54,854 nt of DNA from Caldilineales bacterium (GTDB taxonomy: Bacteria > Chloroflexota > Anaerolineae > Caldilineales > Caldilineaceae), in contig JBBQBY010000001.1 in the NCBI GenBank assembly GCA_038318235.1, positions 1 to 54,854 of the forward strand, written 5' to 3'. The notes under the pieces are model-generated. The model searched no databases and was not told where the DNA came from. It saw only the letters and a program-made list of their open reading frames with translations. This document shows, piece by piece, positions 14,270 through 33,676 of the stretch. Numbering within the stretch: position 1 is the stretch's first letter; every line of letters begins with the position of its first letter. The translations under genes and the position numbers were made by a program.

Positions 14270-14297
14270 ATGATAAGCACTCAGCCCTATCCAAACC

Positions 14298-17200: not shown

Positions 17201-20200
17201 TACCCAGATTATTCTGCGCTTGGCCTTCCAACTTCCGATCCTTGGCCTTCTGCGCCAGCGCCAACACCTGTTCATAGCTTTCTCGCGCCTTATCCGCCTG
17301 CCCGGCGTTGCTATACAACTCACCCAAGTTACTCAATACTTCGGCTTGCAGGGTGGGATTGCCGCTATCCTGCACAATTTTCAACACTTGTTGATAGGTT
17401 TCCAGCGCCTTAGCCGTCTGCTTTAAGTCGCGATAGATGCGGGCGCTGTTGGTCAGGGCACTCATTTCCATCGCCCCGTCCTTGCTTTCGCGGGCGATTA
17501 CTAATGTCTTCTGATAGGCATCCAATGCTTGCTGCGGCTGGTTTAAGCGGCGATAGAGTTGCCCCAAATTGTCCAGCGCGGCGCCTTCCAACACCCGATC
17601 GGCCATTTGTTGCGCCATAATCAACGCCTGTTGGAAGAGTTCTCTGGCTTGGTCATATTGGCCTTGCGCCAACTCGATACCGCCCAGGCCATTGAGCGCT
17701 GTATAAATCAGCGCTTTGTCGCCGATACTCCGGGCGCCGTCTAGGGCTTTCTGATAGGCAGCTTGGGCTGGCCCGACCTGTTTTGCCGTCACATAGACTT
17801 TGCCCAGCTCGATATAGGCGGCGTTGGTCACACTCTGGTTATTCATCTGCCCACCAAGCGTCACCACCTGCTGGTACGTCGCCACTGCCTTATCCATCTG
17901 GCCCGCATCGCGATAGGTGCGTCCTATCCGGGTCAAGGCATCGGCTTGTAAGGCATTGTCTTGCAAGGTTTGGGCCAACTTGAGACCATGCTCATACGCT
18001 TCCAACGCCTGATCATAGCGGTTGGTATTTTGATAGAGCCGGCCTAGGTTAACGAACACTTCAAATTGTAAATTCTGGGCAGTGGGCGCGCTGGCCAATG
18101 CCTGGGCCAGCACTAACGCCTTTTGAAAGGCATCCTGGGCCTGATCTGGTTTGGCCAGGGTGGTGTAAAGCTTACCCAGTTCACTAAGCGTTTCCGCCTG
18201 CGATTGTTTGTTGTCGACCTTTTGGGCCACGGCGAGGGCCTTCTGATAAGCTTCTACGGCTTTCTCCGGTTGCCCTGAATCGCGATAGATGTTAGCCATA
18301 TTCGCCAACGTCTCGTCCTGCAAGCCGAGGTCACCCAGTTGTTGGGCGATCTGGAGGGCCTGATCAAACTTGCGCTGGGCATTGTAAATCTGGCTAATGT
18401 TGCCCAAGATATTGATTTCGGCTGGATGGTCTTTGGCCTTTTGGGCCAGCGCCAAAGCCGATTGATAGCTTGTCAACGCTTGATCATATTGCTGCGCACT
18501 CTGTTGGACCGCACCGATATTTTCGAGAACGGTGGTCTGCAATTTGATGTCGTTGAGTGCCTGGGCAATCGGCAAAGCGGCGGCAAAGGCATGCAACGCT
18601 TCAGTCGGCTTTTGCAAGCCAATCAGCGTCTTGCCCAATTCCACATAGACGGCGCCTTCAAGCGCTTGATTCTTACTCGTCACGGCAATCGTCAGCGCCG
18701 CACTATCGCTAATTTGCGCTTGGTCGAATTGCCCCAGTGCCCGATAGACGCGACCGATATTGGCTAACGCTTGACCTTCTGCCGCCTGATTGCCCGCCTC
18801 ACGCGCCAGGGTGAGGGCTTGTTGGTAGGGCTCCAGCGCCTTGTCGAACTGGCCGGCGTTGCGGAAGGTCTCCCCCATAGCGTTTAAGACCGCGTCTTCT
18901 AACTTAAAATCCCCCAACTGTTGCGCAATGGCAAGTGCCTGCTCAAACTGGCCCAAATTGCGATAGACATTGCCGACTTTGAGCGTGAGCGTATTGACGA
19001 GCTTGGTATTACCGCTGGTTTCGGCCAGCGTTACCCCTGCTTGATACGCCGCTAGCGCCTTATCGTTTTGCTGCAACGCCGTATACACCTCGCCGATGCT
19101 GTCGAAGATCATCGGCTGCCATTGCGGGTCAATTTGCGCATCACAGGCCGCGGTCTGGTTGGACAACCCCTGGACCAAGGTCAAAGCCTGCTGGTAGCTG
19201 GCGAGTGCTTCCGTGTACTTTTGCCCCGTTTTGTAGAACTCACCCAATCCATCGCGCACCATGGCTTCGAGCACGCGGTTGCTGCTCTGCTGGGCCAGGG
19301 TTAAGGCCGTTTGATAGGACTGCAAGGCGGGATCGTTCTGGCCGAGCGCTTGTTGGGCCGCGCCCAGGGCGATTAATGTTTTGCCTTCTAAGTCTGGCAG
19401 CGTTAATTGGCGGGCCAGTACAAGGGCTTTAGTAAAACTTTGCACCGCTTGATCCTGTTTGCCCAAACTGCTATAGGCTTTGCCTTGCTCAAGCAGGGTC
19501 TTGGCTTCCAGCATATGGTCGGTCAACGCCTGCGCCAGCGTGAGCGCTTCGGCAAACGTTGCCAACGACTGATCCAATTGGCCGGCATCGCGATAGACTT
19601 TGGCGATTTCGGCCACCAACTGTCCTTCCCGCGCGGGATTCTTGGCCTGTTGGGCAAGCGCGCGCGCTTGTTGATAGGCTTTCAAGGCGGCATCATATTC
19701 GCCCAAATCACGGTTGGCATGACCAATCGTGGTGAGGGCTTCACCCTGCAATTTGGGATCCTTCAAGGCTTGCGCAATCGCCAATGCCTGTTGGGCAGGT
19801 GCTAATACTTGGTCTATTTGACCCAGCGCCTGTCGTAGACGGCTCACGGCGGCCAGGGTTGCGCCTTCTAGCGCCCGTAATTTGAAAGCCTGCGCGATCC
19901 GGAGCGCCTCTTGGTAGGCACTGAGCGCATCATTACACTGGCCTAAATTTTCCTGCAAAGCACCCATGCTCGCCAACGTGTTGGCTTCACCCGCGTGATC
20001 AGATAGTCGCCGGGCCACCAAGCGTTCTTCGTCATAGGTCTGCAAGGCGTCCGCGGGTTTTTGCAACGCCACTTGTGTTTCGGCGATACTGTCCAGCGCG
20101 ATTTCTTGCAGCGCAAAATCGTCGAGCGTTTTGCCAATCGCCAGTGCATCCTGGTAGAACTTGAGCGCCTGGTCAAACTGGTTTTGGGCCCGATTGATAT

Positions 20201-23200
20201 CGCCAAGGTGCGCTAGCGCCTTGCTTTCCGCCGCGCGATTGCCAGATTCGCGGGCGAACGCCAACCCTTGATTAAATGCTTCCACAGCCTGATCGCTCAA
20301 GCCCTGGGCAAGATAGATGCGGCCAATGTTGTCGAGTGCTGTCGCCTTTAACTTAGCATCGTTCACTTGATCGCTCAGGGTAATCGCGCGCTGATAAGCG
20401 GTGAGGGCTTGGTCATACCGCTTCAACTCACGATAAGCGTTACCGGCGTTGACCAGGCTCTCGCTCTCCATCGCGGCATTTTTGGTCTGTTGCGCCAATT
20501 GCCGTGCTTGCTCGAATTGGGCCACCGCCTGGTCGAATTTCTGTGTATCGCGATAGAGTTTACCAATTTCCAGCAATGTATTCGCCTGCGCATTGTTATC
20601 TTTCAACTGCTGGAATAACGCCAGCGCTTTCTGATAGGCCGCCATACCTTTGTCGGTCTGGCCTTGTACCCGATAAAGTGCGCCCAACTCGTTCCAAGTC
20701 TGACCTTGCAAATTGAGATCCTTGATCGTCAGCGCAATCGTCAGGGTAGTTGTAAAGGCCGTTTGTGCCTTGTCAAACTGGCCAAGCGCGCGATAGATGC
20801 GGCCCAAATTGGCTTGCGTACGCGCTTCCTGGGTCTTATCACCCGCCTTCTGTGCGCTGGCGAGTGCCTGTTGATAGGGTTCCAGCGCTTGTTCAAACTG
20901 GCCGGCATCGCGTAGATTGCGTCCCAAATCCTGTAATACGGCGTCTTCCAGGTCAACATCATTCAATTTTTGGGCTACGGCCAGCGCCTTCTCATAGTCG
21001 CCTTGCATGCGATACACATCGCCGACGCGGGCCGTGAGTTGATTCACCAAACTCAGATTGTTGAGGCGCTGGGCGACGACAAGCGCCTGTTGATAGGCCG
21101 CTAACGCCTGGTCAGCTTGGGTCAACGCCTGATAGGTCTGGCCAATGTCATCGAGAATTTTTGCTGCCCAAGCTGGATCGGTGGGGGCTGCACAGGTGAG
21201 TGCTGGGCTGCCCAGCGTGCGCACAACAGTCAACGCCTGCTGGTAGGCGCCAAGCGCTTGCGGCTCCTGCTGGCTGTTATGATAGAAGTCGCCCAAGCCC
21301 TGTTGCGCCTGCGCAGCTAAGACCTGGTCGTTATTCTTTTGGGCCAACGCCACCGCGCTTTGGTAAAATTGTAATCCTTGTTCGTCTTCATTGAGCGCCT
21401 GTGCTGTGCGCCCTAATTCGAGCAGCAAACTACCTTCTAAATTAGCGATTGCTTTATCATGGATAATGGCCAGCGCTTGGTTATAGTTTTGCTGCGCCAA
21501 ATCAAATTGACCCAACATCCGGTAGACTTTGCCAATTTCGATCAACAGCTTGGCTTGTAACGGGTAATCGCCAGTTGCTCGCGCCAGCGCCACTGCTTGG
21601 TCGAAACCGGATAATGCTGCCTCCAACTGCCCGGCGTCGCGCGTTACTTTGGCTGCTTCGGCGAGAATCTGCCCTTCTAATGCTTGATCCTTTAACGTGC
21701 GCGCCAATGCGCGCGCCTGCTCAAATGCTTGGCGGGCCTGGTCCAATTGGCCCAAATCGCGATAGGCTTTGCCAATCTCGACTAAGGTAAGGCCTTCCAA
21801 ATGCGCATCTTTTAACGATTGGGCAATCGCTAAAGCGGCTTGGTTGGTCTTTAAGACCGTATCGGCATGACCCAGCGCGCGGTTCAGCCGGCTGATTTCG
21901 TTGAGGGTTGCTCCTTGTAAGGGGCGCAACTCAAACTCCTGGGCCAGCGCCAGCGCATTCTGATAGGTGGTGATCGCTTGGTCGCATTGGCCAAATGCTT
22001 CCTGCGCCGCGCCCATGCTGACCATGATTTCGCCTTCGGCTTTATGGTCAGCCAAGCTTTGTGCCAGCAAACGGGCGTCATCGTAGGCTTGGAGCGCTTT
22101 GTCATATTCGTTGATCGCTTGATGCGCTTCGGCGGAACTAATCAAGGCCAGCTGTTCCAATGGTTGATTGTTTAGTTCGCGCGCGATCGCGAGTGCATCG
22201 TCATAGAACTCTAGCGCACGGTCATTCTGATTTTGGTCATGATGGAGTTTGCCTATGCGTACCAATAGACGACCTTCGGCCTGTTGATCATTCGCCTTGC
22301 GGGCCAGTGCTAACACTGCTTTATAGGTCTCCAGCGCGCGGTCAACGCGCTGTAAGGCGAGGTAGACCCGACCCACATTCTCCAGCACGCGTGCTTGCAA
22401 GGCGATCCCAGCGGTGTCGCTTGGTTTCCCAATCACTTTCTGTGCGGCTTGGAAACTTTGCAGCGCCTGTTCATATTGCGTCAAGTCCCGATAATTGATG
22501 CCGATGGCCAATAACACTTCGCCTAACAAGGTCGCGTTATCCGGCCCTGTCGCCAACTTTTGCGCGGCTTGATATTGGGGCAACGCCTGGCTGAACTGAC
22601 CCATATCGCTGTAGACATGGCCGATTTCGAGCAAGACATTCGCCTGGCCTGTGCCATCTTTAATTTTTTGGAACTGGGCCAACGCCTGTTGATAGGCGCC
22701 CAAACTCTCTTCAAATTTCGCTTGGTCACGCTTCAGGCCGCCGATCTCTTCAAAGGTTTGCGCCAATCCATTGGTGTCGGTTAGCGTCTGGGCCAGCGTC
22801 AGCGCGGCTGTGAAGGCGCGATCGGCCTGGTCATAATTGGCTTGCGTCCGCTCAATGCGCCCGATATTAACCAGGGTTTGGCTTTGCAGGATGCGATCTC
22901 CGCTGGTCTGGGCTTTGGCGAGGATCTTTTGATAGGCGGCCAGCGCCTGTGCGTATTGACCGGCATCGCGCAAGCTGCGTGCTAGCGCGGCCTGCACCTC
23001 ATCTTCAAAGGCGACATCGCCCAGTTGTTGGGCAATGCTCAGCGCCTGATCAAATTTGCCGGTCAGGCGATAGATCTTGCCAATACTCTTTTGCAGGTTG
23101 GCCGCCCAGGTTGGATCAATCGCCGCTACGGCGCAGGTCGCCGACGTTGCCGCGGCCGGCGTAACAACGGCCCCTGGCGCCAGCGTCTGCACAATGCTCA

Positions 23201-26200
23201 GCGCCTGTTGATAGGCGCTCAAGGCCTGATCGAACTGATTGGCCGTGCGATAGAAATCCCCTAAGCCTTGTTGCGTCTGGGCTTCCAACTTGCGATCCCC
23301 CTGCTTTTGCGCCAAGGCCAGGGCGGCCAGATAGGCTTGTTGGCTTTGGGCCGCTTGGCCTGCCGCCTGATTCACCGCACCGATGGCTAAGAGGAGCGCG
23401 CCTTCCAGGTTCGGCACAGGAGCCGTGCGGACCAGGGTCAGGGCCTGGGTATAACTTTGCAAGGCTAGATCAAATTTGCCCGTTTCTGCCTGAAATTTAC
23501 CTGTTGCCACGATCATGTTGGCGAGGATCGTTTGATTGCCCAAAGTGCTAGCCAGTGAGATGGCCGATTGATAGGCTGTAAGCGCCAGATCCAACTGGCC
23601 TGCACTCTGATAGGCTTTGGCAGTCTCGGCGACGATCTGAATTTCCAGTGGATGGTTTCTGGTCTGTTGCGCCAGCTCACGTGCTTTGGTCAAACTTTGG
23701 ATCGCTTGGTCATTTTGGCCCAAGGCATAATAGGCGCGGCCTATCTCAACTAGCGCCTGGCTCTCCATGGTCTGATCTTTGATCGTTTGGGCTAGTTTTA
23801 GCGCTTGCTGCGCGGACACAAGCACTTGATCGGCCTGGCCCAACCGCCGTTGCAGTTGACTCAAGTCCGTCAATGCTTCGCCTTCTAAACTGTGCAAACC
23901 CAGTTCACGCGCCACCGCCAATGCTTGGTGGTAGGCGGTAGCCGCATTATTACATTGACCCAAGACTTCCTGGGTTTCGCCAATGCTGATCAAGAGGTTG
24001 CCCTCAGCATTGTGATCGCCCAGATCCTGCGTCAGTTGTAGCGCATCGTTAAAGTCGTCTAAGGCTGCCTGATTCTCATTCAAGGCGCGATGCACCAAGG
24101 CCGAACCCTTGAGCGCAATCTGTTCCAACGCCTGGCTACCCAATGCCTGAGCCACGGTCAATGCATCCTCGTAGAAACGCAACGAACGTTCGGGTTGCCC
24201 AAACTGACGATAGACATCGCCGATGTGCACCAGCGTGCGCCCTTCTAACGGATGATCGCCGGATTTTTTTGCTAGCGCCAACACTTGTTGATAAGCGTCT
24301 AACGCCCGTCGATCTTGTTGTAAGGCCAGATAGACGCGCCCAATGTTGTCGTAGACGTTGCTGGTGGCGGCGTCATCGTTGGTCGTCAGGATCAATTTCA
24401 ATGCGGCCTGGAAGGACTCTAAGGCCTGATCATATTTGGTCAACTGGCGATAGGTGATGCCAATATTGACCAAGATTTCGCTGGCCACGCGCGGATTATC
24501 CGCCGTTTTGACCAGTGTCTGCGCCGCTTGATATTGCCCCAAGGCCTGGTCAAATTGCCCTAGCGCTCGGTAGACATTACCAAGCGCCAGCAACGTGTCG
24601 GCTTGCGAATTCGCATCGTTGATCTGCTTGAAGAGGGCCAATGCCTGCTGATAGGCCGCCACTCCAGCCGCAGACTGGCCCAAAGCTTGGTAAGCCGCGC
24701 CGATTTTCGCCTGGGCCGTGGCCGCCATGTTGGTGTTCTTCAATGCCTGGGCAACGGTTAATGCCTTCGTAAAGAGCGCCAACGCTTTGTCAGATTGACC
24801 AAGGTCTTGGTAAATATCCCCAATATCTTCGTAGATGCTGCCTTTGCTGGTCTGGTCGGCCAGTTGGTCAGCCGTCGCTAGCGCCTTATCATATTGGCCA
24901 AGGTCACGGTAGACTTTGGCCAGCGCACCACGTAAGCTAGTTGCGAACTCTGAGTTCTTTAATTCCAGGGCAATCACCAGCGCTTTTTCATAGGGGTCAA
25001 CCGCTTGATCGTTATGCCCCTGCGCCCGGTAGGTGCCGCCTAGCCCGTCGAGGGCTTGCGCTTCTAGACCGCGCTGCCCAAACTGGCGCGTATTGGATAG
25101 CGCCGTCTGGAAGGTCGCCAACGACTGTTCATATTGGCCCAATTGGCGCTGCGAAAAACCGATGTCCATCAAGATTTCGCTGACGCCTTCGTTGTCTTTC
25201 AATTGCTGCGCATCGGTGAGCGCTTCTTGATACAAGACCAAGGCTTTTTCGTGCTCGTCCAGTTCACGGTGGACGCGTCCTTCGTCGAGCAGGATTTCGC
25301 CGACGACTTCCAGATTTTTTGTCGCCCGCGCAATCGTCAATGCCTTGTCGTAGTGGGCGAGTGCTTCGGGGAATTTGCGCAGTTGGCGATAAATCGCGCC
25401 AATTGCAAAGAGGGTGTCACTTTTTAATTCTTGATTATCGAGCTTTTCGCCCACCGCCAGCGCTTGTTGATAGGTGGCGAGCGCCTGATCAAATTGTTCC
25501 TGGTCGCGATAGACCATACCCGTGTCGGCGAGCACTTTGCCTTCCAGCGTAAAGTCTTCGATCGTGCTACAAGTCGGTGCGCTGAGCCCCAGGCGGGCGA
25601 TGTTGGCGCGTGCCAGGCGCAATGATTCCGCATAGGATTGCAAGGCTTGCGCATATTGCTTGGTCAGCCGCTGTACTTCGCCCATGTTGCTAAAGGCGAT
25701 GGCTTGCAGCCCCAGATCATCGATCGCCTGGGCAATCGCCAGCGCCTTTTGATCGGCATCCAGCGCCTGGTCATACTTGCCCAGATCGCGATAGGCGCGC
25801 CCCATGCCCGAATAAATTTCAAATTCCAACACCCGATCACCGGTCTTTTGCACCAGCACCAGGGCCTTTTGATAAGGATCAAGTGCGGCATCATATTGGC
25901 CAGATTCGCGATAAGCCCCACCTTCGCCGGCCAGCGCTTCGGCCTGCATCAGAATTAAGTTTAATTCCTGGCCAATCACCAATCCAGCCTTATATTCGTC
26001 CAGCGCTTTCTCATACTCGCCAGAACTGCGCAAGGAATCACCTAGATAGATATGACCGTTGCCTTCGAGTTCACGGGCTTTAATCGTTTGTGCAATCTGG
26101 ATCGATTCGCGAAAGGCAAGCTGTGACTGATCGAATTGACCGACCAGATCATCCATGTGGCCCACGCCAAATAACGCCCTGGCCAGCGCCAAGTTATCAT

Positions 26201-27998
26201 TGGCGCTTCTGGCCGCATCTACGGCGCTTTGATAGGCGCTCACGGCCTGGGCACATTGCCCCAGATTAGCATAGAGGCCACCCAGGCTGACAAAGATGCG
26301 ATTCTGCATCGCCATATCGTTGCTGGTTTGGGCTGCGGTAAGTGCTTGCTGATAAAAGCTTTGCGCCTGATCCACGTTCTTTTGCGCCTGATAAACCGCC
26401 CCAATTTCGCCATAGATCAGCGCGGTGGTGGTCTGGTTGTTGCGCATCTGGGCGTACACCAGCGCTTGTTGGAAAGCCTGCAAGGCCCGATCATACTGGC
26501 CGGCGTCGCGGGCGGCGCGCCCCAGATCAACCAGCAATTGGCTCTGTGCCGTGGTATCACTTAGCACTTTGCTGGCCGTTAGGGCTTGCTCATAAGCGGC
26601 CAATGCTTGGTCATATTTTCCGGCGCTGCGGTAGATTTGCGCCAGATCGCTGCGCGCTTGGCTCTCCAGGGCCCCGTTCTTTACGGCTTGGGCGGCGGTC
26701 AAGGCTTTCTGATAAGCCTCGGTCGCGCGCTCCAACTGATTCATGTTGGCATAGGTTTTGCCAATGCCATCCCAGAGCAAGCTTTGCAGCGCCTGATCAC
26801 TGCTGACTTGGGCGTTGACCAACCCTTTTTGATAGAGTTGCAGCGCTTGCACATTCTGGCCCAAGGCGCGATAACTGCTGGCGAGATCGGCCAAGATATC
26901 AATCAAGAGCGCCGGATTATTTTCCGTTTCGGCTAAAGTGAGTGCTTGTTGAAAATAGGCCTGCGCCTTGATCATTTCGCCGACGTCGCGATAGGCGCGA
27001 CCTAGATTAGCCAGGGTTCGACTTTCCAACTGGTGATCGCCCAACAAAGGCAGCAGGGTTAAAGCCTTTTCGTACGCCTGCTTGGCTAAATCAATTTGAC
27101 CCAATGCGCGATAGGCATTGCCAATATTCACTAACGTTCGGGCGGCCAGCGCATTGTCGCCCAGTTCCGTGGCAATTTGCAGCGCGCCTTGATAGGTTTC
27201 GAGCTCTTGTTGATGTTGGCCCAAATTTTCATAGACATTGCCAACGTTGTCGAGCGCTTCGCCGGCTAACTTCTGATCGTTGGCGGCCTTGGCCAGTGCC
27301 AAGGCCTGTTGATAGGGGCCGACAGCCTTATCAAATTGTTTGGTTGTCTGATAAATTTGACCCATGTCGGCCAATATCTGGCTGGCTAGCGCGTTATTGT
27401 TGGCGCGCTGGGCAATCGTCAAGGCTGTTTGATAGGTCTGCAAGGCCTGGTCATATTGCTTTTGGGCCAGATAGACGCGGGCTAGCCCAAACTGGCTATC
27501 CCCGAGCAATTCTGTGCCACCCAATTTTTGCGCCAGGGTCAGAGCCGCTTGAAAGCTTTGTAAAGCCAAGTCAAATTGTGCCGTGGTTAAGTAGATTCTA
27601 CCCAGGCCAACGTGGGCCTTAACCATTCGTTCGCCATCGCCAATCCGTTGCGCCAGTGCCAAGCTTGCCTTGTAGGCTTCCAGCGCGCCGTTGATATCCC
27701 CTTGCGCCGTCTTGACCAGACCAATATAGCGCCAGGTAATACTCTCGCTTTTAGGATTGCCAATATAACGATAAAATTTTTGCGCCGTGACCAACTGGAT
27801 CAACGCATCTGGCCACTGCTGCGCCTCGATCAGCGTCAACGCGGCGACCAATGCGGCATCGCCCTGATTGTGCACCACGGGTGGGGCGGTGGCAGGGACG
27901 GCCAACACCGGCTGGGGCAACAGGGTCAAAACCACCAGCATGATCTGCAAACATGCTTGGGTTGCCCTGCGTAGCGATCTTTGGGATGCCTTTTTCAT
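14298..27998 (-). CDS. Giant secreted/anchored TPR-repeat protein with a C-terminal CHAT domain (4566 aa from ATG 27998; ORF open to 28067 = 4589 aa)
   Basis: Single uninterrupted ORF. MKKASQRSLRRATQACLQIMLVVLTLLPQPVLA-VP looks like a Sec signal, and GGAG lies 8 nt before ATG 27998. About 95 tandem 40-residue KLC-type TPR units follow (consensus A-x-x-YQQAL-x-IAQ-x-x-D-x-x-x-E-x-x-x-L-x-NIG-x-VYR-x-LGQYDQ). The CHAT-like region contains LVIVPQGILEYLPF, DILHIASPA and LVVLSRSAAD. The end has a Thr-rich linker, a TM helix and an RRNRLNKKKK tail. Confidence 0.9.
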   Translation of the reverse strand: MKKASQRSLRRATQACLQIMLVVLTLLPQPVLAVPATAPPVVHNQGDAALVAALTLIEAQQWPDALIQLVTAQKFYRYIGNPKSESITWRYIGLVKTAQGDINGALEAYKASLALAQRIGDGERMVKAHVGLGRIYLTTAQFDLALQSFQAALTLAQKLGGTELLGDSQFGLARVYLAQKQYDQALQTYQTALTIAQRANNNALASQILADMGQIYQTTKQFDKAVGPYQQALALAKAANDQKLAGEALDNVGNVYENLGQHQQELETYQGALQIATELGDNALAARTLVNIGNAYRALGQIDLAKQAYEKALTLLPLLGDHQLESRTLANLGRAYRDVGEMIKAQAYFQQALTLAETENNPALLIDILADLASSYRALGQNVQALQLYQKGLVNAQVSSDQALQSLLWDGIGKTYANMNQLERATEAYQKALTAAQAVKNGALESQARSDLAQIYRSAGKYDQALAAYEQALTASKVLSDTTAQSQLLVDLGRAARDAGQYDRALQAFQQALVYAQMRNNQTTTALIYGEIGAVYQAQKNVDQAQSFYQQALTAAQTSNDMAMQNRIFVSLGGLYANLGQCAQAVSAYQSAVDAARSANDNLALARALFGVGHMDDLVGQFDQSQLAFRESIQIAQTIKARELEGNGHIYLGDSLRSSGEYEKALDEYKAGLVIGQELNLILMQAEALAGEGGAYRESGQYDAALDPYQKALVLVQKTGDRVLEFEIYSGMGRAYRDLGKYDQALDADQKALAIAQAIDDLGLQAIAFSNMGEVQRLTKQYAQALQSYAESLRLARANIARLGLSAPTCSTIEDFTLEGKVLADTGMVYRDQEQFDQALATYQQALAVGEKLDNQELKSDTLFAIGAIYRQLRKFPEALAHYDKALTIARATKNLEVVGEILLDEGRVHRELDEHEKALVLYQEALTDAQQLKDNEGVSEILMDIGFSQRQLGQYEQSLATFQTALSNTRQFGQRGLEAQALDGLGGTYRAQGHNDQAVDPYEKALVIALELKNSEFATSLRGALAKVYRDLGQYDKALATADQLADQTSKGSIYEDIGDIYQDLGQSDKALALFTKALTVAQALKNTNMAATAQAKIGAAYQALGQSAAGVAAYQQALALFKQINDANSQADTLLALGNVYRALGQFDQALGQYQAAQTLVKTADNPRVASEILVNIGITYRQLTKYDQALESFQAALKLILTTNDDAATSNVYDNIGRVYLALQQDRRALDAYQQVLALAKKSGDHPLEGRTLVHIGDVYRQFGQPERSLRFYEDALTVAQALGSQALEQIALKGSALVHRALNENQAALDDFNDALQLTQDLGDHNAEGNLLISIGETQEVLGQCNNAATAYHQALAVARELGLHSLEGEALTDLSQLQRRLGQADQVLVSAQQALKLAQTIKDQTMESQALVEIGRAYYALGQNDQAIQSLTKARELAQQTRNHPLEIQIVAETAKAYQSAGQLDLALTAYQSAISLASTLGNQTILANMIVATGKFQAETGKFDLALQSYTQALTLVRTAPVPNLEGALLLAIGAVNQAAGQAAQSQQAYLAALALAQKQGDRKLEAQTQQGLGDFYRTANQFDQALSAYQQALSIVQTLAPGAVVTPAAATSATCAVAAIDPTWAANLQKSIGKIYRLTGKFDQALSIAQQLGDVAFEDEVQAALARSLRDAGQYAQALAAYQKILAKAQTSGDRILQSQTLVNIGRIERTQANYDQADRAFTAALTLAQTLTDTNGLAQTFEEIGGLKRDQAKFEESLGAYQQALAQFQKIKDGTGQANVLLEIGHVYSDMGQFSQALPQYQAAQKLATGPDNATLLGEVLLAIGINYRDLTQYEQALQSFQAAQKVIGKPSDTAGIALQARVLENVGRVYLALQRVDRALETYKAVLALARKANDQQAEGRLLVRIGKLHHDQNQNDRALEFYDDALAIARELNNQPLEQLALISSAEAHQAINEYDKALQAYDDARLLAQSLADHKAEGEIMVSMGAAQEAFGQCDQAITTYQNALALAQEFELRPLQGATLNEISRLNRALGHADTVLKTNQAALAIAQSLKDAHLEGLTLVEIGKAYRDLGQLDQARQAFEQARALARTLKDQALEGQILAEAAKVTRDAGQLEAALSGFDQAVALARATGDYPLQAKLLIEIGKVYRMLGQFDLAQQNYNQALAIIHDKAIANLEGSLLLELGRTAQALNEDEQGLQFYQSAVALAQKNNDQVLAAQAQQGLGDFYHNSQQEPQALGAYQQALTVVRTLGSPALTCAAPTDPAWAAKILDDIGQTYQALTQADQALAAYQQALVVAQRLNNLSLVNQLTARVGDVYRMQGDYEKALAVAQKLNDVDLEDAVLQDLGRNLRDAGQFEQALEPYQQALASAQKAGDKTQEARTQANLGRIYRALGQFDKAQTAFTTTLTIALTIKDLNLQGQTWNELGALYRVQGQTDKGMAAYQKALALFQQLKDNNAQANTLLEIGKLYRDTQKFDQAVAQFEQARQLAQQTKNAAMESESLVNAGNAYRELKRYDQALTAYQRAITLSDQVNDAKLKATALDNIGRIYLAQGLSDQAVEAFNQGLAFARESGNRAAESKALAHLGDINRAQNQFDQALKFYQDALAIGKTLDDFALQEIALDSIAETQVALQKPADALQTYDEERLVARRLSDHAGEANTLASMGALQENLGQCNDALSAYQEALRIAQAFKLRALEGATLAAVSRLRQALGQIDQVLAPAQQALAIAQALKDPKLQGEALTTIGHANRDLGEYDAALKAYQQARALAQQAKNPAREGQLVAEIAKVYRDAGQLDQSLATFAEALTLAQALTDHMLEAKTLLEQGKAYSSLGKQDQAVQSFTKALVLARQLTLPDLEGKTLIALGAAQQALGQNDPALQSYQTALTLAQQSSNRVLEAMVRDGLGEFYKTGQKYTEALASYQQALTLVQGLSNQTAACDAQIDPQWQPMIFDSIGEVYTALQQNDKALAAYQAGVTLAETSGNTKLVNTLTLKVGNVYRNLGQFEQALAIAQQLGDFKLEDAVLNAMGETFRNAGQFDKALEPYQQALTLAREAGNQAAEGQALANIGRVYRALGQFDQAQISDSAALTIAVTSKNQALEGAVYVELGKTLIGLQKPTEALHAFAAALPIAQALNDIKLQTTVLENIGAVQQSAQQYDQALTSYQSALALAQKAKDHPAEINILGNISQIYNAQRKFDQALQIAQQLGDLGLQDETLANMANIYRDSGQPEKAVEAYQKALAVAQKVDNKQSQAETLSELGKLYTTLAKPDQAQDAFQKALVLAQALASAPTAQNLQFEVFVNLGRLYQNTNRYDQALEAYEHGLKLAQTLQDNALQADALTRIGRTYRDAGQMDKAVATYQQVVTLGGQMNNQSVTNAAYIELGKVYVTAKQVGPAQAAYQKALDGARSIGDKALIYTALNGLGGIELAQGQYDQARELFQQALIMAQQMADRVLEGAALDNLGQLYRRLNQPQQALDAYQKTLVIARESKDGAMEMSALTNSARIYRDLKQTAKALETYQQVLKIVQDSGNPTLQAEVLSNLGELYSNAGQADKARESYEQVLALAQKAKDRKLEGQAQNNLGSLYRKAGQPAKALESYQQVIAIAQELGDKPLEQATLANIGGAYGDMGQLDQAIAAYQKILASAESSNNQMLIATTNYNMGLLYRVQGQYDQVFKFYQAALKISQAAGDQTGAAQTLSGIGAAYSEIGRFDQALPAYKQALKLYQDAKDNAGVVATFNQLGTTYLLMSDYEKALAAYQQASALVTQMGNLALAAETYTGLGRTYRAFQQHDSALAFYQQALAAQQKLGDKIGEALALNNVGIVLNDLDRSQEAQDTYQKALKITDEMDNKAVKERILVNLGKVYRDTGQNDLALEQFQQALTIAKEIGDQSTEGATQNEIGAVYLNILQFDKALEPFRQALEIVRRIGDKSEESESLAGMGMAQEAKGDVVQAISSYQQAVAIVQTNVVQTESYQRLVNLLWKQKRYDDAFNYMEQARSRASLDKNANPWIDFRAATTPDIIKQEQTLRQQLVGSQRALDAEHLKPADQQNQALLNQLGEATKTASVQYQQVVTQLKQSNPEYASLIGIDAISLEQLKKSVLDSHTTLVTFFILRKTSIAWVVDQDRDVLVPLDVTGNELIRFVTALRTKMANPTAQVTENADLYSRLIVPIRPYIRHSNLVIVPQGILEYLPFAGLYDAAHKRYLVEDFAISYAPSASALRYAIGKRNADTGRMLAVGDVDNSLNFAKQELQAVAKLYGATAIIGKEATKLQVNDKAPQVDILHIASPATYKPFQPLFTTIKLAPDAQDDGNLETHDFFNLNLAQANLVVLSRSAADTNSRNTGSEIIQLNRAVQYAGAPAVISTLWPVEDAATVKLYSAFYKYLREKQTTAEALRNAQLDMLKQTTSSAPYYWAAPLLSGDYKGNGEVTNDKLITGTLGATTGVSGTLEVQGQGTIQSASKVTNTQDTTATHNQTDSIPATTATAAVTATMNISGSQLPTTTAKLPSLAGASKGICNNVTLPIGLVLLVGMFRRNRLNKKKKTEGK

Positions 27999-28086
27999 GA
28001 TTTCTGCTCCAAACGTACGACGTCCGTTATAAACTTGATGATAGCGATCTTTATCGATGATAGTCAATGGCGGTAGGTGGAAAAGC

Positions 28087-28210
28087 GTAAGTGGTGATTG
28101 GTAAGTGGTGATTGGTAAGTGGTAAATAGTAAATGTGAAAGATCACTGCCTGGCAGCGAGATGAGCAAGGCTGGCCACTGCTGCCCACTTACCAATCGCC
28201 ACTTACCAAT
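28087..28210. repeat. Intercistronic long inverted repeat built from tandem 14-mers (GTAAGTGGTGATTG x2.5 / CCACTTACCAAT mirror)
   Basis: Left arm is tandem GTAAGTGGTGATTG at 28087-28128. Right arm is CCACTTACCAATCGCCACTTACCAAT at 28185-28210, ending at the first base of the synthase stop codon. It lies between the synthase gene and the giant gene. Confidence 0.7.
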
Positions 28211-31200
28211 TACTTCGTAACATGCACAAGTGAATCCAGCCAAGGTGCAACCCGATCAACCGTGCCGAAAATGTTAATCGGCCGGTTGGCGACCGTCGCC
28301 CATTCATCGGTAAACCGAATGTTCTCGATATTGCTCCGACTATTGGGGAAGTTATTGGCGAGGAATTGGTTCGACCCCGTCTTTAAGTACAGACCTACTT
28401 TATTGCCCGTTACTTCGTTATTGGCGATCTGGTTGCTGGCGGCCTCGGTCGTCAAATAAACGCCGCGCTCTCCATCGGCAATCTGATTGTGGAAGATGTA
28501 ATTTTCGGTAGAGCGAATGTAAACGCCGATCCTGTTCTTCTCCAGCGTATTCTTCCAGATCCAATTTTGGAACGATGCCTCGTAGATGTAGACGCCGTAT
28601 TGTGTGCTGCCGACGATTTGATTGTCGTGCACGATATTGGTGGCCGCGCCGCGCTGCATGAGGATGCCGCGTTTGTTATCGTTCAATTTGTTGTTATAGA
28701 TCAAATTGTTACTGGAGCGCCAGACAATAATGCCATCGGTATTATTGTCTAGGATGTTGTCATAGATCGAATTTTTGTCGCTTTCGCGGTCTAACATGAT
28801 GCCGTGTAAACGATTGTTGACCGAGCGGTTGCGGCGGATGATGTTATTGGTACAGCGGCGCGAGAAGATAATGCCGTGGTTGCCATTGTCGTGTACATAA
28901 TTATCTTCCATAATGAAGTTGTTCGAATCATCATGCGGGTCAAAGCCGTATTGCACGTTATTAAACACTTCATTGTTGCGAATAATCATATTGGTGGCGC
29001 CAAACGAGTAAAAACCGAAATAATTATCGTGGATTTTGTTGTTCTCCACGTGGCCTGTCACCAATTCTTTGCCAAACTTGGTGCTGGTTTCGATGCGCCA
29101 GGCCAGACCATAAACGCCACCGCCGCTTTCACGGGTGGCGGGCTGGCCCAAGAAGGAAATTTCCGAATTAACCACATCCATCCGGGCATTGTTGACGCGA
29201 ATATGGCTGCGACCATCCTTATAGTTACGGTCATAATCGTTTAACTGGGGATCCCAGGTGCTGACCTTGACGCCGCTGATGCCAAGACCACCGCCGTCAC
29301 CAAAAATTCGGATCGTGCCCGTGGTGTCACTCTTTAACTTGAGCCACGCCACCTGCGGTGCTTCTACCAAGAGCAATGTGTGGCGCTTTAGGATTAGGTT
29401 GGTTTTCAAAAGATAGACGCCGTTGCCTTGATCTTCCAACAGAGAACTATCACCCACGCGTGCATATAGGGTCGGCACATCTAACACGGCGCCCCAACCA
29501 TCCACCGTGATCGCGTTGATCTCCGGCTTATATTGCACTTTTAAGTTGCTCTCGCGGCCGACAGCGCTGTCCATCGCCTGGCGATAGGCTTCATAATCCT
29601 TAAAGGGTAACTTGATCTGAACTTTTTGCCCGATCTCCCATTTGCCGCTTGGCACGCTAATCGCACTCTGCTCAACGCCATACTTGCGGCTGATCAGTTG
29701 AGGGGTATCACCCACGCCAATTTCATAGTCGGTCAAGCCTTCGCCAACTTTGGTCGCGCCGGCATTGGTCGTCGGTGGATCGTTCACTTGAATAATTTTG
29801 CTGCTCGCCAGGGCAAAGTTATAGTTGGGCAACTGATCCTCGGCGTTTTTGACATGCGAATCCAGCGTGATGCCGGGCAGTGGCAATTGACGTTCGAAGA
29901 AGAGATTGATGCCAAGCACAATGAGAACGACGGTGACGGCTGTGGCCAGATAGGCCGGGATCATCCGAAATGGCTTTAGGGCGCGTAGCCGATTGCTCGA
30001 CCAGCGTGTGCCCCACCCTTGCAAGTTCATGGTAAAGAATGCATAAATGCGCAGGATGGCAAACCAATAGCTGAAGAGGATGTACCAGGGCAGGACAATA
30101 ATGCTTGACCGTCGGCGGCGTATATTGCCCCAAATTTTGATCAGGCGCGAGGTCAACCACCACAGAACAAGCACAATTGTAATAAAATAACGTTGGTAAT
30201 AGATCGACAAGAAAAAATAGGTCGGTGCAATCAACGTAGTCACTGGTTGAAACAACCGATCGATCAGGTGGAAAGCCAAGGCCGGCTCGTGCCAAACCCA
30301 GCCACTGAAAAGCGTTCTTAGGTCAGAACGCCAACTGTTGCGCGCCCAGCGAATACGTTGCTTGATAAAAAAGCCTAATTGCGGCGCACCTGGCGTATAT
30401 ACCCGTGCATTCTCTTGATAACGAACTTTCCACTTTTGGGCTTGCACTAGATTAGTGAGCGCTTTATCATCCCCGCTGATCACAGGTCGCCCCCAAAATG
30501 TCTCGTTTTCCAAATCGTCTAGCACTGGCAAGATGGCCGCGCGGCGATAGACCGCTGTACGCCCAGAAATACAGGTCACGGCATTGCCCAAGACCGCCAA
30601 GAAGCGGATCTCGTCCATATAACGAATATCCAGATAGACATCAAACAAACGCTGGGCAATGGTGTGCGGATTTAAAACGTTCTGGCGGGTAGTCACACCG
30701 CCCACATCTGGATCTTCAAACGGGGCCACCGCTTTGACGAGCACGTCTTCCGTCCAAATGGTGTCACTGTCGACCAAAAAGATGATTTCACCGCTGGACG
30801 ACAAAGCGCCATCGACAAGCGCCGGTCTTTTTCCGGGTTTTTTCGTGACGATCAATTTCGTCGCAGTGATGCCTTCAACGGCTGCCTCTTGCTCGAATTC
30901 TGTAAATACTTGAATACACTTCTCATCTGTGTAATCAATGACCGCGATGATCTCCGTTGGTCTGTTCGCGGCCCAAGAACGCAACGCCATCAAAAACACT
31001 TCGGGGTTTTCATTGTAGACCGGTGTGACAATACTGGTGGTTGTCATATACCCAGAGGGTTCTTGGGGGTGATAGCGCAAGCCGATCAATTTGCGCAGTA
31101 GCCATATGCCCCAGCGGTAAATGCCGATATAACCGACCGGAATTAAGAGGAAAATGAGGTTGCCTGTACTCTTTAACGCGCTAAAAAGCTGCAACAAGAC

Positions 31201-31242
31201 GTCATACAGACGTTTAAATTCCAACAGCAATTGATCGGGCAT
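28210..31242 (-). CDS. Fusion protein: processive family-2 glycosyltransferase (HAS/NodC/Alg8-like synthase) + multi-TM + LysM + right-handed beta-helix (polysaccharide C5-epimerase/lyase-like)
   Basis: GT2 motifs are VDSDT, ISGDDKALTN and KQRIRWARNSW (QxxRW). At least 5 TM helices follow. The LysM-like segment reads YEIGVGDTPQLISRKYGVEQSAISVPSGKWEIGQKVQIKLP. About 12 PbH1-type repeats (NNxIxxNxxxGI) follow, with QYGFDPHDDS encoded at about 28930-28950. An AGGTGGG RBS precedes the start. Confidence 0.85.
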   Translation of the reverse strand: MPDQLLLEFKRLYDVLLQLFSALKSTGNLIFLLIPVGYIGIYRWGIWLLRKLIGLRYHPQEPSGYMTTTSIVTPVYNENPEVFLMALRSWAANRPTEIIAVIDYTDEKCIQVFTEFEQEAAVEGITATKLIVTKKPGKRPALVDGALSSSGEIIFLVDSDTIWTEDVLVKAVAPFEDPDVGGVTTRQNVLNPHTIAQRLFDVYLDIRYMDEIRFLAVLGNAVTCISGRTAVYRRAAILPVLDDLENETFWGRPVISGDDKALTNLVQAQKWKVRYQENARVYTPGAPQLGFFIKQRIRWARNSWRSDLRTLFSGWVWHEPALAFHLIDRLFQPVTTLIAPTYFFLSIYYQRYFITIVLVLWWLTSRLIKIWGNIRRRRSSIIVLPWYILFSYWFAILRIYAFFTMNLQGWGTRWSSNRLRALKPFRMIPAYLATAVTVVLIVLGINLFFERQLPLPGITLDSHVKNAEDQLPNYNFALASSKIIQVNDPPTTNAGATKVGEGLTDYEIGVGDTPQLISRKYGVEQSAISVPSGKWEIGQKVQIKLPFKDYEAYRQAMDSAVGRESNLKVQYKPEINAITVDGWGAVLDVPTLYARVGDSSLLEDQGNGVYLLKTNLILKRHTLLLVEAPQVAWLKLKSDTTGTIRIFGDGGGLGISGVKVSTWDPQLNDYDRNYKDGRSHIRVNNARMDVVNSEISFLGQPATRESGGGVYGLAWRIETSTKFGKELVTGHVENNKIHDNYFGFYSFGATNMIIRNNEVFNNVQYGFDPHDDSNNFIMEDNYVHDNGNHGIIFSRRCTNNIIRRNRSVNNRLHGIMLDRESDKNSIYDNILDNNTDGIIVWRSSNNLIYNNKLNDNKRGILMQRGAATNIVHDNQIVGSTQYGVYIYEASFQNWIWKNTLEKNRIGVYIRSTENYIFHNQIADGERGVYLTTEAASNQIANNEVTGNKVGLYLKTGSNQFLANNFPNSRSNIENIRFTDEWATVANRPINIFGTVDRVAPWLDSLVHVTK

Positions 31243-31331: not shown

Positions 31332-32222
31332 CTAATGTCTCTGTGCGTCCAGCATGACAAAATTGCTTGGAATCTGCTGGCGGTTGTGGTTGACCTGAAT
31401 TGTCGCGGCCAACATGAGCGTTTCCCAACCGCGATCCTGGCAAAAGGCAAAAAATCCTTCTGTATCCTTGGGCAGACAGGCGCCTGCATAGGGCGCGCCC
31501 CCACGTGTACCATACAATGGATTCCACATGCCCTCCGCACTGCGTGCCACGACAGCACTTACGACATTGCTATCGATCGCAAGCTTTTCGCAGATTTCAT
31601 GCACTTCATTGAAATAGCTAATCTTGAGTGCATTGTAAATATTGTTGACATATTTAATCATCTCCGCCTCAGCCGGTGTACACTGGATAATGAGCCCACC
31701 AAAAGGCGTATAAATATCATAAAGAATCGCATTCGTCAGGTGGTCTGTGGTCCCCAGCACTGTGATCCACGGGCGGTCAAAGTCTTGTTCACTGCTGCGC
31801 TGGCGCAGAAATTCTGGATTCACGGCGAGCCCAAAGTCAATGCCAGCCCGTTTGCCAGAAATTTTTTCTAAGACCGGGCGTAATTGCTGTTCTGTGGTGG
31901 TGGGCGGTACAGTGCAGCGCACCACCACTACCACAAATTTACTGGTTGCAGCTAAGCCCGCCCCAATGGTTGTCATCGCCGCCGTCAGTGGACCTAGTGA
32001 GGTTCGACCATCGATGGTTGGTGTTGGCACAGTTACCATCACAATGTCCCATGTTGGCCAATTTACCTGGGCTGGTTGCATAGCAAGCGCCCCTTGCTTT
32101 GAAAGGAGCGTAAGTTTCTCCTGTTCAATGTCAACGTAGCCAATTGTATAGCCTTTTTTGGCTAATCCTTTACCCGTTGCCTGGCCTACAACGCCGGCGC
32201 CCACAACTAATATATTCAACAC
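31332..32222 (-). CDS. UDP-glucose/GDP-mannose 6-dehydrogenase family protein lacking the C-terminal domain
   Basis: GTG start. Rossmann VVGAGVVGQATG, central-domain NPEFLRQ and the catalytic-Cys motif GACLPKD are present. The protein ends about 40 aa after the Cys (296 aa versus about 390-440 typical). Confidence 0.8.
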   Translation of the reverse strand: MLNILVVGAGVVGQATGKGLAKKGYTIGYVDIEQEKLTLLSKQGALAMQPAQVNWPTWDIVMVTVPTPTIDGRTSLGPLTAAMTTIGAGLAATSKFVVVVVRCTVPPTTTEQQLRPVLEKISGKRAGIDFGLAVNPEFLRQRSSEQDFDRPWITVLGTTDHLTNAILYDIYTPFGGLIIQCTPAEAEMIKYVNNIYNALKISYFNEVHEICEKLAIDSNVVSAVVARSAEGMWNPLYGTRGGAPYAGACLPKDTEGFFAFCQDRGWETLMLAATIQVNHNRQQIPSNFVMLDAQRH

Positions 32223-32314
32223 TAGATTGGTTCCCTTGCTTTGTTCTCTGTTTCTGTAGAGAAATGGGTCTCAAACAGATGCGTTGCCGCTTTATTTTAT
32301 ATTTTGCACAGGAT

Positions 32315-32342
32315 AGTTTATGCACCACGATACTTTGGTCAA
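32315..32342 (-). promoter_or_regulatory. Candidate promoter TTGACC-16-TAAACT for the dehydrogenase-synthase-TPR block
   Basis: Reverse complement of 32337-32342 is TTGACC and of 32315-32320 is TAAACT. It lies about 95 nt upstream of the GTG at 32222. Confidence 0.3.
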
Positions 32343-33170: not shown

Positions 33171-33262
33171 ATATGGTTCAACCGGATCGCAAAGGGGAAA
33201 TCGCTCAAATCTTCCTGGAAGCTGGTCAACCCCTAGAAATCCGCTTGAACCGCAATTATATT
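33171..33262. repeat. CTTCCWGGAAG-core palindromic element, short/single-core copy B1
   Basis: GGTTCAACCGGATCG...CTTCCTGGAAG...CCGCTTGAACC. The left half resembles the left half of the copy at 44203-44343. Confidence 0.55.
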
Positions 33263-33290
33263 AGGCAATGGGCAGAAATTAAAGTGAAAT

Positions 33291-33493: not shown

Positions 33494-33676
33494 AAAGGGG
33501 AATAAATTTTAGCGAAGGCAACAGCCTCAAACGCTAATGATTTCATCTGGGATAGTGCGATGCAGGTAAATATAGCGTGGGACAGTGTTTGTACTGCTCC
33601 GCTATCCCACTGTCTTACTTTCTTCATGACACACTGTATAACGCTCTCCGCCTAACTATCGTCCTGTCGCACACCA

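Follow-up and report, generated by a model that had tools for sequence, protein, structure and literature searches.

The locus studied here raises the question of which polymer is made, and how it is edited, by a gene that joins a polysaccharide synthase and an epimerase-like beta-helix in a single polypeptide. The gene lies at 28210..31242 on the minus strand of a 54,854-nucleotide stretch of DNA from a Caldilineales bacterium of the phylum Chloroflexota (assembly GCA_038318235.1, contig JBBQBY010000001.1, positions 1 to 54,854), which as a whole is called the window in this study. It forms one uninterrupted open reading frame (ORF) with an ATG start, encoding 1010 residues that comprise a synthase, a LysM-like module and a putative epimerase. 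From sequence comparisons and a structure model, we lean towards the view that this gene is the core of a synthase-dependent pathway which makes and C5-epimerises a polyuronate, most likely an alginate-like one. A full-text literature search returned no description of a covalent synthase-epimerase, nor of this gene module in Chloroflexota or in the Candidate Phyla Radiation (CPR).

The fusion protein and its family

The central claim of the first-pass annotation of this DNA, that one polypeptide fuses a GT2 synthase to a beta-helix, is borne out by a conserved family with many long homologues. Among the 120 best listed homologues, 119 exceed 900 residues and share the same GT2 plus beta-helix architecture, and all motif counts in this study are taken over these 119 long members. 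An assembly artefact was considered as the origin of the fusion and is ruled out by the recurrence of the architecture in the 119 homologues. In the genome closest to the window, a Lake Pavin Chloroflexota metagenome-assembled genome (MAG; L001), the protein is 95% identical to the fusion across residues 1-809. The motif strings named in the annotation were each recovered at the expected position, with VDSDT at residues 157-161 (30760-30774), SGDDKALTN at 256-264 (30451-30477), KQRIRWARNSW at 294-304 (30331-30363) and QYGFDPHDDS at 764-773 (28924-28953), the DPHD codons falling at exactly 28930-28941.

The AlphaFold2 (AF2) model of the fusion protein, for which a 30-sequence family alignment served as input, has a mean pLDDT of 87.3. 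Alignment A1, to which we refer for conservation, drops M1, so its numbering equals the protein numbering minus one. The database labels of the family ('hyaluronan synthase', 'glycosyltransferase', 'NosD domain-containing', 'parallel beta-helix repeat protein') are generic only, and the cluster names of the nearest beta-helix representatives are uninformative, several of these representatives being fragments of fused proteins. A scan of species genomes with the family alignment confirmed at least 22 loci. Most of these are unrelated GT2s; the Pseudomonas loci turned out to be ArnC/ArnA, and a Spirochaetia locus is a plain chitin-synthase-like GT2 with a different gene context.

The synthase half

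The cytoplasmic GT-A (GT2) catalytic domain occupies residues 62-310 (30313..31059, minus strand) and is recognised by Pfam Glyco_tranf_2_3 (9.1e-25) and by the NCBIfam model of NodC, the chitooligosaccharide synthase (4.4e-29, residues 62-309), while the Pfam GT2 families match the fusion protein across residues 70-302. In a sequence search of the PDB, residues 131-418 match the hyaluronan synthases (HAS) of Xenopus (XlHAS1, E 3.8e-15) and of Chlorella virus (CvHAS, E 1.4e-14), the identity of the synthase half to HAS being 18-20%. Foldseek places the same enzymes first for the AF2 model, with CvHAS 7sp7 (E 8.5e-19, TM-score 0.62 on target) and XlHAS1 8smp (E 9.7e-17) as best matches, and cellulose and chitin synthases follow as much weaker ones.

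The catalytic signatures are conserved in the same way. VDSDT aligns with CDSDT of XlHAS1 and IDSDT of CvHAS, and its DSD is invariant in alignment A1 (D157, S158, D159 and T160 in A1 numbering) and present in 118 of the 119 members. The GDD motif (G257-D-D259 in SGDDKALTN) aligns with LGDDRHLTN and YGDDRRLTN of XlHAS1 and CvHAS, respectively, and the QxxRW motif (Q295-R-I-R-W299 in KQRIRW), which sits inside model helix 288-311, aligns with NQQTRW and VQQTRW; both are kept by all 119 members. Further along, the HAS segments ...FTMFDIAWGTRG and ...LTLNKTGWGTSGRKK match ...FFTMNLQGWGTRW of the window protein at the gating loop, whose motif W409-G-T-R-W413 (30004..30018, minus strand) aligns with WGTSGRK of XlHAS1 and WGTRG of CvHAS. 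The family consensus of this loop is QGWITRWD; W409, T411, R412 and W413 are invariant in A1, and W.TRW is found in 116 of the 119 members.

This residue-by-residue agreement of DSD, GDD, QxxRW and the WGT(R/S) loop upholds the earlier assignment to a HAS/NodC-type processive synthase and, together with the model, indicates that a channel-forming, processive GT2 of the wider HAS/NodC/chitin-synthase type makes up the N-terminal half. By the same comparisons it is an orthologue of no named enzyme: NodC reaches 101.6 bits against a cut-off of 550 and PgaC 51.8 bits against 422, and scores so far under the NCBIfam cut-offs argue against orthology with either. Nor is it Alg8-like, as judged from its matches, and no Alg8 model occurs among the NCBIfam matches of the fusion protein at E<=0.1, nor Alg8 among the PDB sequence matches listed.

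The beta-helix half

Residues 567-976 (28315..29544, minus strand) form a right-handed parallel beta-helix, which we propose to be a polymer-level uronate C5-epimerase from its AlgG matches and from the model. About 14-15 three-strand rungs are seen in this region of the model with pLDDT mostly >90, so the 'about 12 PbH1 repeats' counted previously was a fair estimate. The best-scoring structure in the PDB sequence search is AlgG of Pseudomonas syringae (4nk6, E 1.5e-27), aligned over 287 residues (600-886), and AlgE4, AlgE6 and other chains labelled 'mannuronan 5-epimerase' are also among the matches; a Foldseek search with the model likewise found AlgG (E 2.3e-17, TM-score 0.73). The NCBIfam model of AlgG (mannuronan 5-epimerase) matches residues 577-858 at 6e-37. 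Its score of 127.5 bits is far below the 700-bit equivalog cut-off, so that the C-terminal half, on this evidence, is of the same superfamily as AlgG but is no AlgG orthologue. As sequence matches, the AlgG alignment of this half and the HAS alignment of the other are both far beyond chance.

The proposed catalytic-base region is D768-P-H770-D771 (28930..28941, minus strand) of the motif YG(F/I)DPH(D/E). The stretch Y765-G-F-D-P-H770-D771 is in register with YGIDPHD of AlgG, so that D768 and H770 correspond to AlgG D317 and H319; the AlgG chain index is offset by 45, and its numbering was fixed by the PDB titles 'D317A' (4nk8) and 'T265N'. Arg795 (28858..28860, minus strand) is the equivalent of AlgG Arg345 in the alignment hgiifSRr / HGIIISRE; the AlgG residue lies 26 positions past His319, the arginine is nearly invariant in A1, and HG..S[KR] is kept by 113 of the 119 members. 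In AlgG, His319 is reportedly the base and Arg345 is said to neutralise the carboxylate. The expectation that the DPHD segment would fall on the epimerase site is supported by these alignments.

The YG.DPH[DE] motif is retained in 110 of the 119 members, and the full catalytic motif is kept across phyla (Chloroflexota and CPR) at about 40% overall identity; conservation of this kind in the window protein and its relatives argues for selection on catalysis. The remaining nine are of two sorts. Six relatives (P0050, P0051 and P0053-P0056), which form a subclade, have lost DPH, four of them also being without HG..S[KR], and three more (P0059, P0070 and P0076) carry DTHD, DLHD or GSHD; in all nine the beta-helix and the GT2 motifs are intact. 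The beta-helices of these relatives are probably catalytically dead or altered, and it is probable from the sequences that the beta-helix also guides or protects the emerging chain.

The AlgG-like module itself is far more widespread than the fusion. With residues 561-1010 (28210-29562) as query, 8671 clusters at the 50% identity level were matched at E<=1e-3, of which 352 at E<=1e-30, and the architectures include giant proteins of 3000-5600 residues with up to 25 matching stretches.

Membrane topology and the LysM-like module

Whether the two halves can act on one polymer depends on where the beta-helix lies. The membrane region comprises residues 311-450 (29893..30312, minus strand), as delimited by the AF2 helices and by the HAS alignment, which continues through the third interface helix (IFH3) and the gating loop. 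The model has helices at 319-347 and 351-375, both transmembrane (TM), at 377-402, of the interface type, and at 422-450, the last TM helix. Helix 377-402 and WGTRW align exactly with IFH3 and the gating loop of HAS, and the HAS gating loop WGTSGRK/R is cytosolic and lies between IFH3 and the fifth TM helix, TMH5 (PMC11750622). Because of this match, helix 422-450 should be TMH5 and should run from inside to outside. By sequence and model, the fusion protein is without the TMH6 of HAS, so the chain past TMH5 continues outside.

Other observations agree with this orientation. Basic residues cluster in the loops 372-380 (RRRR) and 403-421 (five basic residues), and the sequence past residue 450 is acidic. 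In the split systems described below, where the beta-helix is encoded by a gene of its own, the stand-alone beta-helix proteins open with basic residues, after which comes a signal anchor, a 19-mer with a mean hydropathy of 2.6-2.8, and they retain YGLDPHDDSNN. In some fused relatives the aligned position holds a genuine LysM, and an additional SH3_3 is at times present at the C-terminus; LysM and SH3_3 are usually extracytoplasmic wall-binding modules. With HAS homology, charge distribution, split-form signal anchors and partner domains in agreement, the LysM-like module and the beta-helix are predicted to be extracytoplasmic, which is the location that the first-pass annotation had made the test of its proposal. 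A naive hydropathy count, in which helix 377-402 is taken as a TM helix and the beta-helix is left inside, was rejected, as this helix is IFH3 and the loop after it is the cytosolic gating loop. Since such a count inverts the topology, automated predictors have to be read with care for this family.

The module between the membrane region and the beta-helix (residues ~498-545, 29608..29751, minus strand) is predicted to be extracytoplasmic and, by sequence and model, is LysM-like and degenerate. Pfam LysM (PF01476) reaches only 14.1 bits (E 0.047) on this segment against a cut-off of 20.9 bits, and only the first 23 of the 43 profile positions are matched. Homologues clear the threshold at the same columns (P0059 with 44.9, P0064 with 39.5 and L004 with 25.5 bits), and CPR and Aeromicrobium relatives carry a genuine LysM there. 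The model elements, strand 501-506, helix 513-520 and strand 539-544 with pLDDT >88, are compatible with the beta-alpha-alpha-beta fold of LysM. Thus the segment reported as LysM-like is present and homologous to genuine LysM domains, but this copy scores below the Pfam cut-off, and the peptidoglycan tethering that had been ascribed to it is no more than plausible. In the first ~90 residues of split-form beta-helix proteins (L004, L026 and L027), the segment after the anchor, e.g. 'YGYYMIKPNQTLTE', was observed to resemble the start of another LysM-like module.

The short dehydrogenase

A gene on the same strand, which ends 90 bp upstream of the fusion gene (31332..32222, minus strand), encodes a short nucleotide-sugar 6-dehydrogenase of 296 residues that belongs to the UDP-glucose/GDP-mannose dehydrogenase family. 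Its N-terminal and central domains were identified by Pfam (UDPG_MGDP_dh_N 5.9e-23, UDPG_MGDP_dh 1.6e-19), and no C-terminal domain was detected in the Pfam scan. The protein has GAGVVG at residue 8 and PYAGACLPKDT at residues 244-254, with the catalytic Cys249 (family consensus PYGGACLPKDT), and all 120 listed homologues carry GxG[VI]VG and P[YF]GGxCLPKD. The nearest solved structure is the GDP-mannose 6-dehydrogenase of P. aeruginosa (1mfz, E 1.1e-36, 129.7 bits).

Characterised GDP-mannose dehydrogenases (GMDs) of brown algae are also short, with 315-320 residues and GGxCLPKDV, and the Val in GxGxVG and the Pro five residues ahead of the Cys are regarded as specific to brown algae in comparison with bacterial GMDs (PMC4782291). 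Both the Val and the Pro are present in the window dehydrogenase and its family, as shown by motif comparison, and in length, domains and published motifs the enzyme fits the description of the short brown-alga-type GMD in PMC4782291. Brown-algal GMDs were in turn found to be most similar (40%) to a protein from CPR, of Woesebacteria (Mazeas et al., PMC11468063). The dehydrogenase is proposed to supply the activated uronic acid, with GDP-mannuronic acid (GDP-ManA) favoured, because the enzyme resembles the brown-algal short GMDs and has AlgD as its nearest solved structure.

Related loci, fused and split forms

The short dehydrogenase adjoins the module in the window and in six other loci (L002, L004 and L024-L027), which together span three phyla. 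Three of these loci carry the fusion. In Candidatus Levybacteria (L002), the order is fn3 protein, fusion, dehydrogenase and a PL7 alginate lyase, with an Acyl_transf_3 gene and a sortase nearby; another CPR genome (L024) has fn3 protein, fusion, dehydrogenase and a DUF1565 beta-helix; and in Candidatus Andersenbacteria (L025) the dehydrogenase is followed by the fusion, a Pel9A-like beta-helix and a sortase. The other three have separate genes for a GT2-LysM protein and a beta-helix protein: an Aeromicrobium MAG (L004) and an Aeromicrobium-like contig (L027) both show dehydrogenase, GT2-LysM and beta-helix in this order, and a 1.35-Mb JGI contig (L026) has a Pel9A-like gene ahead of the same three. 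PL7 genes (Alginate_lyase2) stand beside the module in L002, L004 and L027, with one copy in L004 and three in L027. A second Chloroflexota pair has the consecutive locus tags BroJett011_46870 and BroJett011_46880, and in the Caldilineaceae locus L023 the dehydrogenase is not beside the fusion gene.

The fusion is therefore one of two natural arrangements, and the split forms are equally common. As genes and gene order agree between the fused and split arrangements, these point, by the Rosetta-stone argument, to a synthase and a beta-helix that act on the same polymer. Nearly all of the 120 top relatives of the Aeromicrobium GT2-LysM protein have a length of about 500-560 residues; a source is named for few of them, and it is then Aeromicrobium, Saccharibacteria/Saccharimonadales, Zambryskibacteria or, once, a Nevskiaceae MAG. 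In a rough neighbour-joining tree of the GT2 and TM region, computed without support values, the split clade stands apart from the fused clade, the latter consisting of Chloroflexota and of CPR of the Levy-, Davies-, Chisholm- and Andersenbacteria type.

By sequence comparison, the set of dehydrogenase, synthase, epimerase and PL7 mirrors the logic of the Pseudomonas alg operon with different parts. The short dehydrogenase and the conserved lyase context, which the first-pass annotation does not mention, are the strongest evidence for a polyuronate product.

Further genes were observed around the module. CPR loci repeatedly have a sortase and an fn3 protein beside it, and in several loci a second beta-helix of the Pel9A/DUF1565 type, a candidate PL9-like lyase, replaces or accompanies PL7; neighbours of these kinds are listed at L002 6645-7304 and 8178-9026, L024 7123-7998 and 13915-14514, L025 10784-12531, L026 4789-5922 and L023 5247-6740. 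The Lake Pavin MAG closest to the window also holds, in locus L003, a GT2-only paralogue of 537 residues and 63% identity without a beta-helix (9992-11605, plus strand), which the tree places in a nested position next to the window protein. Adjacent to this paralogue are genes for two secreted beta-helix proteins of ~1300 residues with six repeat stretches each (12623-16519 and 16774-20715, both minus strand), one with YGIDPHT and YGFDPHD and the other with none, which resemble multi-module extracellular epimerases of the AlgE style.

Nature of the polymer

The best reading of these comparisons is a minimal pathway without Alg8, Alg44, AlgK or AlgE. The dehydrogenase would deliver an activated uronic acid, most likely GDP-mannuronic acid, and the HAS/NodC-type GT2 with its channel would couple polymerisation and translocation in one step to make a 1,4-linked polyuronate (mannuronan). 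At the pore exit, the tethered beta-helix would take H5 from uronates of the emerging chain, so that some would become the C5 epimer (guluronate) and the product would be an alginate-like polymer, which the PL7 or PL9-like genes of related loci may trim or recycle. Chloroflexota, CPR and Actinobacteria appear to be single-membrane lineages, and a secreted free epimerase would for this reason diffuse away; the covalent tether, aided by LysM in relatives, could stand in for the periplasmic Alg44/AlgK/AlgX/AlgG scaffold of Pseudomonas.

Several points weigh against an alginate-like product. Neither a lyase nor an acetyltransferase gene was found among the ORFs scanned in the window, and the other points are set out here together with the alternatives they favour. 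One alternative, which we hold to be rather improbable, is a glycosaminoglycan (GAG)-like product, that is, a GlcNAc heteropolymer resembling hyaluronan, heparosan or a chitin-uronate polymer and built from UDP-GlcNAc and UDP-glucuronic acid (UDP-GlcA). The dehydrogenase would in that case be a UDP-glucose dehydrogenase (UGDH), the beta-helix would convert glucuronate to iduronate, and LysM might bind the product. The GT2 indeed belongs to the HAS/chitin-synthase/NodC clade, whose characterised members use UDP-GlcNAc, its nearest characterised relatives being HAS and NodC, and its WGT(R/S) loop is typical of GlcNAc-transferring synthases; many family members are labelled 'hyaluronan synthase' by JGI. 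LysM, a module that binds GlcNAc glycans, comes directly after the last TM helix. The dehydrogenase scores almost equally against UGDH (3vtf, E 7.4e-34, 120.5 bits, about 9 bits behind 1mfz), its best named NCBIfam matches are UDP-glucose dehydrogenase equivalogs only, all far under their cut-offs, and no gene that decides between GDP-ManA and UDP-GlcA was found in the loci examined. Yet the accompanying lyases are of the PL7 'alginate lyase' family and not GAG lyases, the short dehydrogenase has the architecture of the characterised brown-algal GMD, and none of the loci examined shows a linked UDP-GlcNAc-related gene. To our knowledge, moreover, all characterised beta-helix enzymes of the AlgG/AlgE/ManC5-E kind act on mannuronan.

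The remaining alternatives concern the beta-helix. That it acts above all as a polysaccharide lyase, or as a bifunctional epimerase-lyase (AlgE7-like), and sets chain length or releases the polymer, seems unlikely to us. Proton abstraction is common to the epimerases and lyases of this fold, which leaves a lyase compatible with the sequence; the DPHD-type motif is shared with bifunctional enzymes, the beta-helix modules of the family are built into a great variety of proteins, giant multi-module surface proteins among them, and the window has no separate lyase gene among the ORFs scanned. On the other side, most related loci already have separate PL7 or PL9-like candidate lyase genes, the nearest relative by both sequence and structure is AlgG, an annotated epimerase, and no nascent chain would escape cleavage by a lyase anchored at the pore exit. 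Still less probable is a beta-helix that serves chiefly as a non-catalytic exit guide or wall anchor, with a dispensable epimerase activity. The nine of 119 members without a standard DPHD, all of which keep beta-helix and GT2, make a non-catalytic role possible too, and in P. fluorescens the AlgG protein, and not its epimerase activity, is said to be needed for polymer formation, as the title of Gimmestad et al. 2003 has it (cited in PMC4432689); but the window protein and the other 110 members, across phyla, retain the catalytic motif in full, and guide and epimerase roles can coexist and are not mutually exclusive. Finally, an unrelated beta-helix of the NosD or pectate lyase type, in which DPHD would be coincidental, is effectively refuted. 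The top Pfam name is 'NosD' (1.1e-31, with Beta_helix at 1.4e-28, residues ~730-960), and NCBI calls some homologues 'NosD domain-containing', but these Pfam entries are generic repeat models. In NCBIfam, the NosD model reaches 51 bits and AlgG 127.5, which places the domain with AlgG as first supposed; no NosD is present in the PDB sequence matches or in the 50 best Foldseek matches listed, and DPHD, the HG..SR arginine and the flanking rungs are all in register with AlgG over the 287 aligned residues.

A bolder extension of the alginate-like reading, which we offer as tentative and rather doubtful, is that Chloroflexota, CPR and some Actinobacteria make true alginate with two to three genes, the HAS-like GT2 being a GDP-mannuronate-dependent mannuronan synthase, and that the module was the prototype or donor of the brown-algal pathway, which would point to the type of the algal mannuronan synthase. 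In favour of the alginate-like reading itself, the brown-algal mannuronan C5-epimerases (ManC5-Es) all carry the DPHD motif (PMC11468063, main text). The window protein contains YGFDPHDDS, DGRS and RMDI..SE..YLG, and AlgG reads YGIDPHDRS; the same three strings for brown algae come from a machine-read supplement of PMC11468063 that is corrupted, with identical row tails, and serve as a lead only.

Surroundings of the gene

The next gene downstream, which starts 142 bp from the fusion gene (14298..28067, minus strand), encodes a giant TPR/CHAT protein of 4589 residues and is a possible partner. Pfam recognises about 49 TPR_12 stretches and a caspase-like CHAT domain (1.8e-54, residues 4204-4464). 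The N-terminus of the protein is signal-like, and at its C-terminus a TM helix precedes a KKKK tail. The gene order recurs in the Caldilineaceae locus L023 (from 11149 on), where the first 967 residues of the giant protein are matched collinearly at 40% identity. TPR scaffolds accompany synthase-dependent exopolysaccharide systems (AlgK, BcsC, PgaA and PelB), and by analogy the giant protein may be a partner of the synthase-epimerase.

Upstream of the dehydrogenase lies a gene-free, AT-rich stretch of 1.45 kb (32223-33676) with ~42% GC compared with ~52% for the window. It contains a near-perfect hairpin of 35 nt (33424-33458 / 33460-33494) and a perfect inverted repeat of 17 nt (33314-33330 / 33363-33379), just downstream of an aldehyde dehydrogenase gene; the stretch matches nothing in Rfam, and promoter signals in it do not exceed those of shuffled sequence. 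Across the whole window, Rfam detected one tRNA gene only (50813-50885, plus strand) and no riboswitch upstream of the operon, and promoter and terminator scans performed no better than shuffles. The other window genes scanned are of the housekeeping kind (recA, tgt, a ZnuABC-type transporter, ABC exporters, a GAF histidine kinase and the aldehyde dehydrogenase), and no PilZ-, AlgK-, AlgE- or AlgX-like protein was found among these ORFs.

Significance and comparison with known systems

The only bacteria known to us to synthesise alginate are Pseudomonas and Azotobacter, which use an Alg8/Alg44-based trans-envelope machine for it. If our reading is true, the gene described here would represent a second and far simpler route to make and tailor a polyuronate, in single-membrane bacteria, and a natural case of a polymerase covalently coupled to a product-editing enzyme at the pore exit. 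The family occurs widely among uncultured lineages, filamentous Chloroflexota and CPR/Patescibacteria among them, and the surface polymers of these lineages are little explored. As a two-gene module it would be an attractive route to engineered alginate-like polymers and, with its algal-like dehydrogenase and epimerase motif, the family offers a candidate type for the brown-algal mannuronan synthase.

Compared with class-I HAS (CvHAS 7sp7, XlHAS1 8smm) and NodC, the window protein has the same GT-A motifs, interface helices, gating loop and channel helices, and would share their autonomous polymerisation and translocation. Unlike HAS, it has no last TM helix, its C-terminus is predicted to exit the cell with an additional 560 extracytoplasmic residues, and its substrate is probably a nucleotide-uronic acid alone. 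Pseudomonas AlgG (4nk6) resembles the C-terminal half in its right-handed parallel beta-helix, YG(F/I)DPHD motif, His319 and Arg345 equivalents and extracytoplasmic location (predicted for the window domain), with ~290 alignable residues. AlgG, in contrast, resides in the periplasm as a free component of a multi-protein trans-envelope complex, whereas in the window protein a TM helix and a LysM-like module connect the domain covalently to the synthase.

At the level of the system, the Pseudomonas/Azotobacter alginate genes likewise encode a dehydrogenase, a GT2 synthase and a polymer-level C5-epimerase together, and lyase and acyltransferase genes occur in the loci related to the window. The parts differ: the window synthase is not Alg8-like, no PilZ/Alg44, outer-membrane porin or AlgK/AlgX is seen, the C-terminal domain of AlgD is missing from the dehydrogenase, and the lyase of related loci belongs to PL7, whereas AlgL is a PL5 lyase. 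The link between synthase and epimerase is covalent in the window protein, unlike that in Pseudomonas, in which polymerisation and modification are linked by protein-protein contacts, including Alg8/Alg44 interactions (PMC4436075). The BcsA-BcsG pair of E. coli (9fmv), which is among the Foldseek matches, is similar in that a processive GT2 is coupled to an extracytoplasmic enzyme that modifies the emerging chain; there, however, the coupling is non-covalent, cellulose is decorated with phosphoethanolamine, and BcsB and BcsC are partners in what is a Gram-negative system.

In comparison with the brown-algal pathway, for which published motifs and a machine-read figure were used, the likeness lies in a dehydrogenase of ~300 residues with GGxCLPKD and the algal Val and Pro, and in the DPHD epimerase motif; the algal ManC5-Es, on the contrary, are free secreted proteins of large gene families. 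The brown-algal mannuronan synthase was still unidentified in the 2024 literature (PMC11468063), and GMD, mannuronan synthase and ManC5-E of brown algae have been proposed to derive from an actinobacterium, citing Michel et al. 2010 (PMC8307928). Because an actinobacterial origin has long been proposed in the brown-alga literature, actinobacterial homologues of the parts are not new. What appears to be new is the fused architecture, the linked synthase of the HAS type and the distribution in CPR and Chloroflexota.

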